Below are positions 267 to 50,199 of a stretch of DNA of 64,000 bases, one piece after another. The stretch is from Octopus vulgaris. Taxonomy: Eukaryota. The stretch is taken from the NCBI GenBank assembly GCA_951406725.2, contig OX597816.1, positions 98,394,001 through 98,458,000 of the forward strand. Direction: 5' to 3'. How positions within the stretch are numbered: position 1 is the stretch's first letter; the number at the start of each line of letters is the position of its first letter. The notes beneath the pieces are model-generated. The model was not told the origin of the DNA, did no database searches, and saw nothing but the letters and a program-made list of their open reading frames with translations. The translations under genes were made by a program, and so were the position numbers.

Positions 267-645
267 ACACAGACACACACACGCACACACACACACACAC
301 ACACACACACACACACATACTCATATTCAAGGAATGGATAACGATAAAATAAAACGTTATCAGCCACTAAGTATATCTAAAACCCTAGAAAAAGTTGGTG
401 AACAACAGGAGGCTGGAAATCACAGTTATTTCGGCTGCTAGAAAAAACACCCATCTTCTTCGATAATATATATATATATATATGTATATATATATATATA
501 TATATATATATATATATATATATATATATATATATATAGAAATTCGGGGTGAGTACTTGATAATTATAAGCACCTGTGTATACCGTTTGGTGGTGTAGGT
601 GGTGGAGTAAATTGATCAAAATAAAAACATGATGCGAAGGATTCA

Positions 646-723
646 GCGGTACATATGTTTCGGGCCTTTATTAGACAGATTTATAACAATGCATAATGTA
701 TGTCTGTGGCCTTCTTCAGCCGC
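646..723 (-). ncRNA. Type I hammerhead ribozyme (left-arm copy)
   Basis: Reverse complement of the 1032-1109 motif. Confidence 0.75.
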
Positions 724-1031
724 GCACAACAGCTTCCACAAGGACATGTGTTACATCAAAAATTCTTGGTTGGGGATGCAAATCCTCTCATTCGCGTACG
801 ACATAATTCGGCAGCAGCATAGAATTGAAGCGTCCATCTCTTTCTTCTCTCTTCACACACATCCAAGGCTGTTTGACAGATTCTATTTGACAGATTCTAC
901 ATTGAGAGAAGAAAGAGATGGACGCTTCAATTCTATGCTGCTGCCGAATTATGTCGTACGCGAATGAGAGGATTTGCATCCCCAACCAAGAATTTTTGAT
1001 GTAACACATGTCCTTGTGGAAGCTGTTGTGC

Positions 1032-1109
1032 GCGGCTGAAGAAGGCCACAGACATACATTATGCATTGTTATAAATCTGTCTAATAAAGGCCCGAAACAT
1101 ATGTACCGC
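1032..1109 (+). ncRNA. Type I hammerhead ribozyme, minimal palindromic helix III
   Basis: GCGG-CUGAAGA-A-GGCC...GGCC-C-GAAA-C-AUAU-GUA/CCGC; stem I GCGG:CCGC, stem II GGCC:GGCC plus ACAGA:UCUGU; predicted cut after 1105. Confidence 0.78.
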
Positions 1110-1835
1110 TGAATCCTTCGCATCATGTTTTTATTTTGATATATATATATATATATATATATATATATATATCAATTCAATTTCCTAGCATTCACTTTGT
1201 CGTTCACTTTACTGTGTCAAACACATTTATGCATGTACCTAATGGGACGATACTTGCCAGCGTTGCTGAAATAATATAAGGAGTAGGGTTTCATAAATTA
1301 TATATTTTGACAATGATTTTCTTTTAAAGGCGCAATGAAAAAATTGTATTATATGCGATACAATATGCATTACAACATTCTCTTTGTTCATTTATTCATA
1401 TATACATACATTCCTTTCTCCAATCATACATATATACATATATGTTTGCATACATGGATACATAGATATATACCATACATAATGCACACGCACAAACATA
1501 CGAATTTCTCCTGGCTGATGACTAAAGTTGTACCTATATAAATTTTACGACGGCTGTTTCGGGAGAAAATGATACTTTATTATGTGTGTGTGTGTGTGTG
1601 TGTATAGATGGACAGAAAGTTATATATATATATATATATATATATATATTATATAAAAGGGCTTAGTAAAATAAATTACTTCGCCGCATACTGAACTCAT
1701 TAGAAATAGCAGCTAAAAAACTTTTTAAAGCTATTTCTAATACTTAAAGAAAATCTCTCTCATATATAGCGTTTGCTTAATTTAACTCACAAAAGTTTGG
1801 GGTAAGGACATTAAAAATCAAATGCTAAGGTTATT

Positions 1836-1887
1836 TGAGTACGTACGTTTCAAGATTAGTCAAAACAACATTTCTCTCTTCAGCTCA
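1836..1887 (-). ncRNA. Type I hammerhead ribozyme copy 1
   Basis: Minus strand: UGAG-CUGAAGA-GAGA...UCUU-GAAA-C-GUAC-GUA/CUCA. Confidence 0.82.
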
Positions 1888-2378
1888 TAAATTCTTGGTT
1901 TGGATTTGGAAACACTGAAAGTAAGAACATACCCTTTCGAAGATCCGCTCTTAACTAACAGTGCCAGCAAACCCAAATAAGCAAGTGAATCATTTCTGTT
2001 CTCCCTTTCCACCAGCGTGGGTTAAAATCATCAAACGCTATGCTTATTTCGGTAAAATCCGAAGCAATAATTAGAGGGAGATTAATTATAATTTCAACAA
2101 TTGAGGGTAAAATTAATTAATTATTAATCAATTTCACCAAGTGTTCAGTATGCAAAGGGACCATTTAAGGCGAATTCAAATTATTACATTATATAAAAGG
2201 GCTTAGTAAAATAAATTACTTCGCCGCATACTGAACTCATTAGAAATAGCAGCTAAAAAAACTTTTTTTAAAGCTATTTCTAATACTTAAAGAAAATCTC
2301 TCTCATATATAGCGTTTCCTTAATTTAACTCACAAAAGTTTGGGGTAAGGACATTAAAAATCAAATGCTAAGGTTATT

Positions 2379-47762: not shown

Positions 47763-48885
47763 TCAGGTTGAGTAAAAATTAAGCAACATTTTTGAAACAT
47801 GAAATTCATTACAGCATATTTCAACAATGCGTACCATTACAATAGTTACAAGATTGATTATTCATGTAACATGAAAATCTGGAGTTCTGAAGCTGATAAA
47901 CTCTTTGAACGCACTTTCAGCATCGGTTTGATTTTTTAACTCCTTCTCTCGCAGGAAACAATCGAGGTGATTGAAAATGTAATAGCTGGTAGAAGAAAGG
48001 TTTGAGGAATATGCTTTTCCATTAACCAGTCTGGGATGGAGGAGTTGGAAATTTTCGTTCATTTTGCCAATTTCATGGCAATATGATTTTCAGTGATGGC
48101 TTTTCCGTTTTTTTAAGAGGTTATAGTGAATGGGTCCAGCAGCACACCACCAAACAGTTATTATAAGCTTCTTCTTGAAGAGCTCGGGTTTAGGGAAGGT
48201 TTTCGGTGCTTCATTTTGGTCCAACCACTGCGGAGAAAGTTTTTTTTTATTATTGTACAGAATCTACTTTTCATCGCAAGTTACAATACGTGGAGAAATG
48301 GATCGGTCTGTTTACGGAGAAGAAGCGTCGAACAAATTCATATCTACGCATTTTCTGATTTTCAGTCGAATCTTGTGGTACCTATTTGTCGAGCTGTTTT
48401 GATTTTGCGATCGCATGCAAATGATTGCAGGCGGACTTCTGGCTCACTTGAACTTCTTTTGACAGTTCTCTGGTGGTTTTATGTGGATCTTTCTATACGA
48501 CTGTCTTTAATTGACCGTCATCGATGACAGATGGACGTCTACTAATTTACGATTTTCGAGGCTCAGGTTTACACAGCGAAATCGTTTAAACCATATCTGA
48601 GTTGACCACTCACTGGTCATATCTTCACCAAACGTTTCGTTGATATCGCAAGCGGTTTCAGCTGCTTTACGTCCTTTATTGAAGTGAATATCAAAATTGT
48701 TCGAATATTGCACTTTGACAGATCTATTTCAAATGACTGTAACGGCAGTGAAAATAAATTAATTTTAATTTACTGATGCATTTCGCCAAGTCTAAGTCTC
48801 TATTATCATACAATTTCAAAAAATTTTCAAAAATAATTCACAACTCTGCGAAAGTCCAGCGTTGATTACTTTTTACTCAACCTGA
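47763..48885 (-). mobile_element. Mariner transposon relic with ~25-bp TIRs, inserted in (TA)n
   Basis: TIRs TCAGGTTGAGTAAAAA.TAA.CAAC at both ends; HTH-like AAETACDINETFGE..WFKRFR; YSSNLSSTSYYIFNHLDCFL resembles YSPDLSPTDYHFF. Confidence 0.92.
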
Positions 48886-49181
48886 TATATATACATATAT
48901 ATATATATATATATATATATATATATATATATAATTTTAATATAAAATGAGGGTGAGAAGTTAGATATTAATTTATTTAACATCGATTTCACACCAGTGG
49001 TCTTGCATATAAAAAAACTGAAGGTTCAGTAAAATTGTATTATATATATATTAGTGGGAAACCACTATGTGGACACCCTTATGCTAGAGATAGGTCCACT
49101 AAGAAATGTTCTCAACAAAAATTTTGCAAAACAACCGAAACGTAACCGAGCAAGACAGAAGAAAAGACAAATATGGATTAT

Positions 49182-49253
49182 TCGCATACATGTTTCACTA
49201 TTACCATATTACGTAATTTTACTTACATAAATGTCCGTAGATCATCGGTGCGA
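49182..49253 (-). ncRNA. Type I hammerhead, variant core
   Basis: UCGCA-CCGAUGA-UCUA...UAGU-GAAA-C-AU-GUA/UGCGA. Confidence 0.65.
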
Positions 49254-49929
49254 CCGTCCAGATGAATATCATTTGCAGGACTGCATACTAGGACGTCCGC
49301 ACAAAGTCAGATTTGTAATCAGTTCTACCCATAACACTCGTGGTTATTATTTCAAATGTGCTCGTTTTGGCGCGCTAAATTACCGGAAAGACTGATGCTT
49401 CAGATAACACTTTACTGCAGTGGCTTTTGCCGGTTAGAGAACGTATTAATTTAAATTTAAAATGAGGGTGAGAAATTAGATATTAATTTAATTAACATTG
49501 ATTTCACGCCAGTGGTCTAGCATATAAAAAACTGAAGGTTCAGTAAAATTGTATTATATAAAATTGTATTATATTTCTTAGTGGTAAGACCATTGCGGAT
49601 CTATTTTTTGCGTAAGGGTGTCCACATAGTGATTTCCCTCTAATATGTATATAATAAATTTTTACTGAACAATTCATTTTTTTATATGCTAGACCACTGG
49701 TGTGAAATCAATGTTAATTAAATTAATATCTAATTTCTCACCCTCATTTTAAATTTAAATTTAAATTAATACGTTCTCTAACCGTCATCAGTCTTTCTGG
49801 TAATTTAGCGCGCCAAAACGAGGACATTTGAAATAATAACCACGAGTTTTATGGGTAGAACTGTTTACAGATCTGACTTTGTGCGGACGTCCTAGTATAC
49901 AGTCCTGCAAATTATATTCACCTGGATGG

Positions 49930-50001
49930 TCACACCTATGATCTACGGATATTTATGTAAGTAAAATTACGTAATATGGTAATAGTGAAACATGTATGTG
50001 A
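49930..50001 (+). ncRNA. Type I hammerhead, degenerate core
   Basis: UCACA-CCUAUGA-UCUA...UAGU-GAAA-C-AU-GUA/UGUGA. Confidence 0.55.
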
Positions 50002-50199
50002 ATAATCCATATTTTTATTGTCTTTTCATTTGTCTTGCTCGATTACGTTTTTGTTGTTTTGCTAAATTTTTCGTGAGAACATATCTTAGTGGTAAGACAA
50101 TAGTGGATCTATTTCTAGCATAAGGGTGTCCACATAGTGGTTTCCTTCTAATATATATATATATATATGCATATAAGGTGTTTCTTCAAGTTCTTTCTC

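Follow-up and report, generated by a model that had tools for sequence, protein, structure and literature searches.

The window analysed here, a 64,000-nt stretch of the Octopus vulgaris genome (contig OX597816.1, positions 98,394,001 to 98,458,000), contains six elements, lettered A to F, that carry hammerhead motifs or resemble Penelope-like elements (PLEs). Elements A, B, C and F are foldbacks of two inverted arms, and D and E are single-armed. In the families to which they belong, 3' ends fall at two fixed sites, an upstream site (S1) and a downstream site (S2), and two-armed insertions sampled across the genome almost always combine one S1 end with one S2 end in head-to-head orientation. 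This layout probably arises by two-site twin priming, in which a PLE protein would cut (TA)n, each DNA end would prime at a different site of one uncleaved RNA, and the two cDNAs would then be joined. The parts of the elements, in window coordinates, are:

466-538, (TA)n on the left side of element A
539-851, minus strand, left arm of element A, putative 3' end (pseudo-long terminal repeat, pLTR) of a Hydra-clade PLE, ending at S2; tail 539-607, hammerhead core at 719
852-893, plus strand, axis insert of element A, in which 856-888 is an exact copy of 3837-3869
894-1140, plus strand, right arm of element A, ending at S1; hammerhead core at 1036
1139-1172, (TA)n on the right side of element A
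1621-1647, (TA)n on the left side of element B
1648-2434, minus strand, left arm of element B, which spans ~1.45 copies of a 544-bp hammerhead unit, stops at S1 (unit position 242) and has cores at 2426 and 1883
2435-3313, plus strand, right arm of element B, which spans ~1.6 copies of the unit, stops at S2 (unit position 335) and has cores at 2439 and 2983 and a tail at ~3221-3313
3314-3375, (TA)n on the right side of element B
3837-3869, plus strand, genomic template of the element A axis insert, in flanking DNA
31358-32184, plus strand, element D, one-orientation tandem of a ~570-bp hammerhead unit, ending at S1 on (TA)n 32184-32335; both cores mutated
40914-41096, minus strand, left arm of element F, ending at S1 on (TA)n 40859-40913
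41514-41826, plus strand, right arm of element F, reaching S2, with a degraded hammerhead near 41576-41587; the family has the triplet GUC
41951-43200, minus strand, element E, decayed 3' part of a PLE with a single arm, whose S1 end lies on (TA)n 41857-41950; left boundary firm, right boundary approximate
48885-48932, (TA)n on the left side of element C
48933-49560, minus strand, left arm of element C, which spans ~1.2 copies of a 542-bp hammerhead unit and has its end at S2 and the core CCGAUGA at 49248
49573-50152, plus strand, right arm of element C, with its S1 end on a short (TA)n and a mutated core (49935-49941)

Foldbacks and hammerhead motifs in the window

The first-pass annotation of this DNA had described three foldbacks (539-1140, 1648-3313 and 48933-50152) with (TA)n at both outer ends and with hammerheads on the minus strand in left arms and on the plus strand in right arms. 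The foldbacks are real, and the positions of the type I hammerhead motifs (719-/1036+, 1883-, 2426-/2439+, 2983+ and 49248-) agree with the described polarity. Identity between inverted arms is 99% for 608-851/904-1147, 98.5% for 1641-3226 and 88% for 49038-49397/49786-50165. All three foldbacks are asymmetric, with an extra 3' tail on one arm (539-607, ~3221-3313 and ~48933-49040, respectively). Neither this tail nor the pair of end sites had been noticed in the annotation, which presented as new a layout whose inverted 5'-truncated copy, one-sided tail, (TA)n bias and palindromic helix III are already published (PMC3846280, PMC8557442, PMC4209133). What is added here is the two fixed 3' end sites of each family, the use of one of each per insertion, and new family members. 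Element F (40914-41826), absent from the annotation, is a hammerhead foldback with the same polarity, S1+S2 ends and a helix II of ~90 nt. The motifs annotated at 31358-32185 and 42004 do lie in hammerhead-family elements (D and E), but both are single-armed and have damaged cores in the window; element E retains a GAAA-CCGG-UA motif at 42009-42018 and an endonuclease-like remnant with CxxC ahead of YIG.

A hammerhead descriptor gave 14 matches in 200 kb of loci taken at round coordinates and 0 in each of 5 shuffles; an Rfam scan of the window returned no hammerhead at E<=1. The 14 motifs have the cleavage triplets GUA (7), GUU (4) and GUC (3), and several of their loops are non-palindromic, so that the annotated rule of GUA triplets with a palindromic helix III holds for the window sample only; GUU also occurs in one subfamily of the 544-bp family B unit. 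The same random 200 kb (L151-L170) hold 25 inverted-repeat rows with arms of at least 50 bp besides the 14 motifs, indicating that such insertions are common in this genome. Core positions are given in what we take to be the hammerhead position numbering. Most family C copies read have the core CCGAUGA (U4 to C), which is a family trait rather than decay of this predicted ribozyme, and the right copy in the window is mutated to CCUAUGA. Relatives of element E have a U3-A8 core, UUGAAAA, of the kind described in PMC4209133. A 76% foldback occupies 19608-20116, flanked by TA on either side and containing a CTGATGA half core at 19961 (+) for which no GAAA partner was seen; it may represent the end of a half-core PLE, and a Naiad-like origin would be a guess.

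Polarity and the two 3' end sites

Of the 862-3414 candidates in each genome search, only 40 were scored. A place fetched more than once counts as a single locus, as does the duplicate L181/L187, and ten extra D, E and F loci were chosen because the match list showed both strands. Two-armed insertions were present at 23/37 loci examined for family A, 42/59 for B, 14/29 for C, 13/32 for D, 7/26 for E and 8/22 for F. Head-to-head orientation was found in 106 of these 107 insertions (this tally and that of 89/90 below were entered by hand from the per-family results), and the polarity bias proposed from the window is thus genome-wide. Outside A-C, 0.8 Mb contained 81 foldbacks, nine of them with a hammerhead motif and all nine with the same polarity. 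TA flanked 46 of the 81 on both sides, 28 having one end flush and the other 19-165 nt away. Since only ~4.7% of bases in the random 200 kb lie within 10 nt of a TA run, TA at both element ends is not due to chance.

S1 and S2 are present in every family, with unit modes of 242 and 339/343 in B and positions of about -72 to -85 and 0 in A. S2 is located ~40-125 nt downstream of S1, and the stretch between them constitutes the one-sided tail. Where both ends of a head-to-head pair fall on a site, the combination is S1+S2 in 89 of 90 cases. The rule holds in 28/28 family B pairs and in 12/12 of a second set fetched after it had been noted. Single-armed B loci end at S1 or at S2, which supports an even null for the choice of site. 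In L134, the sequence continues beyond the tail into the start of an open reading frame (ORF), so that both end sites are internal to a read-through RNA. In families A-D an AU-rich hairpin followed by ACCC stands 10-25 nt ahead of S2, and the S2 ends of B and D are near-identical despite different units. A conserved RNA stem pairing S1 with S2 was predicted in B (z -3.1) and D and in none of A, C or E; it is therefore not claimed as general.

One-of-each pairing would also result if both arms started at one site and an endonuclease later removed one tail during resolution, an origin of the tail considered in PMC8557442. Such trimming could yield the strict pairing together with a rare S2+S2 insertion such as L263. 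We regard it as highly improbable, because S1 ends meet (TA)n with an overlap of mostly 1-6 nt exactly as S2 ends do, single-armed B insertions end at either site, and the start sites reported in vitro match both tail boundaries (PMC11167929).

Axes, 5' ends and variants shared between arms

All 29 family B axes that could be mapped differ from one another; 20 overlap by 1-8 nt, four are blunt and five have inserts (that of L061 being a mapping artefact). Blunt joints are rarer than expected by chance (4/25 versus 52%, p=2e-4). In the window, the arms of element B overlap by 2 nt at the axis, and the axis insert of element A shows a repeated 14-mer and microhomology with the right arm. The 33-mer in this insert occurs at exactly two places in 2.8 Gb, namely the axis and 2981 bp downstream, and the insert is templated from ~3 kb away. 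Templated inserts are a hallmark of polymerase-theta end joining (PMC12426944), and polymerase theta may be the joining enzyme here. Further short, locally templated duplications are present at the 5' junction in L034:5237-5285 and L134:40-130.

Long near-perfect inverted repeats between TA flanks might be taken for a DNA-level foldback or miniature inverted-repeat transposable element (MITE) copied ready-made, or for an artefact of long-read assembly. Either is scarcely credible: the two termini are different sequences and the axis changes from locus to locus, in place of the fixed identical termini and uniform interior of a MITE; family A is joined to an ORF for reverse transcriptase (RT) and GIY-YIG; short-read contigs from other runs hold many different left-to-right arm joints (sides <30 nt); and old arms have diverged.

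Arm 5' ends (84 in all) are near-random in position, with a roughly flat 40-nt histogram, and none lies at the hammerhead cut site (1.7 expected), which points to a template that reads through the ribozyme. An apparent clustering of tailed-arm 5' ends at unit 63-107 was noticed in the first B set. The head-to-head layout, the commonest PLE arrangement, has been read as self-priming (PMC3846280), in which a single cDNA, or an antisense RNA, would fold back to serve as its own template, and the resulting hairpin would integrate. Folding back would produce head-to-head polarity and identical arms, and it fits family A in that many axes there cluster at an internal palindrome (-315 to -332), at which L084 and L091 are symmetric. 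A copy of a copy, however, cannot outrun its template, so that the tailed arm should always be 5'-longer or equal; in family B it is the 5'-shorter arm at 14/29 and 8/13 loci (each count holding one unsafe locus, L044 and L216), and most axes join unrelated positions. These lengths rule out fold-back self-priming as a general route, and we consider it very unlikely as the explanation of the present insertions.

The two arms of one family B locus differ at 5 of 9574 sites, compared with a mean of 0.1-11.8 differences per comparison with other loci, and at eight loci they share variants found in none other of 40. Family A arms show 38 differences in 7750 sites and private shared variants in 4/18 overlapping pairs. 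In the old families, arm-to-arm divergence approaches that between loci (0.076 versus 0.083 in C; 0.109 versus 0.120 in D), so that conversion is not needed to keep arms alike. Arm identity from 100% to ~88% also fits the proposal that the process has operated over a long period. Unit-specific variants stand in register between the arms of L050, L045, L063 and L204. The L050 pattern is impossible from a monomer circle without later conversion, and some templates were thus multimers; many other uniform arrays are compatible with circular templates as well. Periodic variants were rejected as proof of circles, those of L046 and L219 fitting later duplication. Higher-order periods of 2, 3 or 4 units are seen in the family B arrays L045, L046, L063, L065 and L219. 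An RNA-editing signature in family B was likewise rejected (locus-wide A>G 15 versus T>C 11 of 57).

Two RNAs rather than one could have served as templates, if an asymmetric dimer held two transcripts of one source locus with its subunits starting at S1 and S2. This arrangement would explain polarity, one-of-each ends, overlapping arms and shared variants without strand displacement, and identical transcripts of one source array would give in-register variants too. We nevertheless find it unlikely. There are no mixed-subfamily pairs among 42 B insertions, several subfamilies existing (perhaps not co-active). In L141, the tailed arm copies the tail alone, halts at S1 and resumes 175 nt upstream of the other arm's 5' end, and a single RNA accounts more easily for this skip over sequence present in the other arm. 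Tailed arms halting within 8 nt of S1 make up 4/23 short arms (p=0.04).

PLE and retrozyme relatives and the route of integration

Family A (539-1140 in the window) can be assigned by its sequence motifs to the 3' end of an autonomous Hydra-clade PLE. Its copies L131, L134 and L137 have DKT, YRDD and VIY..YIG in one ORF, as predicted for a PLE-type RT with a GIY-YIG endonuclease. The top homologues of this protein carry PF26215 and PF01541, the latter of which we take to be GIY-YIG, and Pfam itself yielded just a weak RVT_1 match, on a related ORF. The closest named homologues of the window's PLE protein are molluscan. Family A shares with the Hydra clade (PMC8557442, section 11) the DKT motif, the CxCx5C linker, a C-terminal GIY-YIG without internal CCHH cysteines, CxxC, CxH, a canonical hammerhead and (TA)n targeting; it differs in having RWA where RWK is expected (L134) and in a length of >4.3 kb, with a ~2-kb 3' untranslated region and an Asn-rich stretch, compared with "generally <3 kb". 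Its loci show a pLTR with hammerhead, an inverted 5'-truncated copy and a one-sided tail; all of its two-armed loci are head-to-head, and 20 are S1+S2. Decayed PLE RT fragments akin to family A lie at 58089-58322 (-) and 44259-44384 (+) (tblastn E 2e-10 and 3e-5). A 214-aa open frame at 24221-24865 (-), between trinucleotide repeats, resembles the C-terminal part of a non-LTR retrotransposon ORF and has a longer relative in L136.

Families B, C and D consist of hammerhead units (544, 542 and ~570 bp, respectively) repeated in tandem, in arrays of up to 13 with no adjoining ORF; they appear to be retrozyme-type repeats inserted in the same way as family A. Like animal non-LTR retrozymes (PMC7229834; bioRxiv 10.64898/2026.07.22.740005), they are low-GC and have one type I hammerhead per unit. 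Their units are longer than the published 150-450 bp, inverted arms and paired end sites do not figure in the available text of those descriptions, and the in-register mixed-unit arrays argue for some multimer templates rather than monomer circles. In published work, retrozymes are regarded as PLE derivatives whose mobilisation is unresolved.

The unit of endonuclease-bearing (EN+) PLEs has been described as a partial tandem with an inverted 5'-truncated pLTR and a one-sided tail of 30-40 nt (PMC8557442, PMC3846280, PMC2377424), and palindromic helix III with close hammerheads on opposite strands has also been published (PMC4209133). The insertions studied here resemble that unit in the head-to-head inverted copy, the tail at one end, the (TA)n bias and the hammerhead within the repeat. 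Their tails are longer (~40-125 nt). In those accounts, moreover, the tail is optional or "often" one-sided and inversion is attributed to self-priming or endonuclease resolution, whereas here one-of-each is near-obligate and the tailed arm is often the shorter. LINE-1 twin priming (PMC10760644) offers a second likeness, with second priming at the target, two cDNAs joined by microhomology and 5' ends meeting at the inversion. Here, by contrast, the two-armed form is the majority outcome (42/59 loci in family B), each of the two start sites is fixed and internal, and at most loci the arms share sequence, in place of a non-overlapping inverted segment; there is no poly(A) tail, and a target-site duplication would be unreadable in (TA)n. 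The closest biochemical parallel is the in vitro reaction of PAc (Poseidon) (PMC11167929), in which both strands are cut and extended from two internal, tail-bounding start sites with no need for ribozyme cleavage. Unlike in that reaction, start sites here share 1-6 nt with the target; pairing of the two sites within one target molecule does not figure in the available text on PAc.

A twin-priming-like integration, as the first-pass annotation had supposed, is supported by the combination of one S1 with one S2 end, by variants common to both arms and by microhomology at the axis. In the two-site form that we favour, a GIY-YIG/RT protein, probably acting as a dimer, would cleave (TA)n on both strands, and the two DNA ends so freed would start reverse transcription at different fixed internal sites, one at S1 and the other at S2; the template is likely a single uncleaved RNA. 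Each cDNA would extend in the direction of the RNA 5' end and terminate at a near-random point; the cDNA 3' ends would anneal via 1-8 nt of microhomology, each templating the second strand of the other, and would probably be joined by host microhomology-mediated end joining, leaving the S1-S2 stretch as the one-sided tail. From the same marks, we infer that the ORF-less units of B, C and D would have been moved in trans. A PLE protein that is predicted to dimerise, cuts and extends both strands, starts at two tail-bounding sites and accepts unprocessed RNA has been described in vitro (PMC11167929).

Several observations weigh against two-site twin priming. Two family E insertions break the rules, L263 being an S2+S2 pair and L262 a tail-to-tail pair (coordinates L263:1093-1565 and L262:1289-1664; family E has a shorter tail and often CA/TG flanks), and 16 head-to-head pairs have one end off-site or truncated. 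The lack of 5' ends at the cut site (0 versus 1.7) is weak evidence, as is the surplus of tailed arms that halt at S1, a post hoc observation. Variants in L210 are in register just partly, and L046 and L207 have a repeated variant in one arm only, which in L207 is partly an alignment artefact and in L046 fits later duplication. The available text of PMC11167929 reports no start-site difference between strands and no homology at the start, compared with the 1-6 nt mostly shared with (TA)n here. No autonomous partner is tied to B, C or D. No target duplication was seen, (TA)n making one unreadable, and no empty site was found among the contigs of 4 runs, which break off at the repeats and nowhere span an element.

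In PMC8557442 the tandem/inverted structure counts as undefined within the PLE cycle, and in PMC11167929 the steps that follow priming are left unvalidated. Among the papers listed, judged by title and opening of the abstract, a scope outside which lie subscription papers, Arkhipova 2006, Pyatkov 2002 and the supplements of PMC11167929 and the bioRxiv preprint, none set out a paired two-site twin-priming model for PLEs. From the present counts come rules by which the models can be told apart: every DNA end has a single start site, the longer arm may be either of the two, the arms share their template, and joining is by microhomology. The counts speak against self-priming, as published, being the general route, and they add insertion-level support for PLE mobilisation of retrozymes. 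The two-site rule can be tested in the existing in vitro PLE system, which would be a direct test of the insertion mode. With evenly balanced confidence, we further propose an asymmetric, two-headed PLE integrase, which would copy one RNA into cDNA twice at the same time from two fixed sites, the trailing RT displacing or jumping the leading cDNA and the cDNAs templating each other's second strand. If true, one step would account, across PLE clades, for the tail, the head-to-head inversion and the synthesis of the second strand, and animal retrozyme arrays would be inserted by the same machine from uncleaved multimeric RNA.

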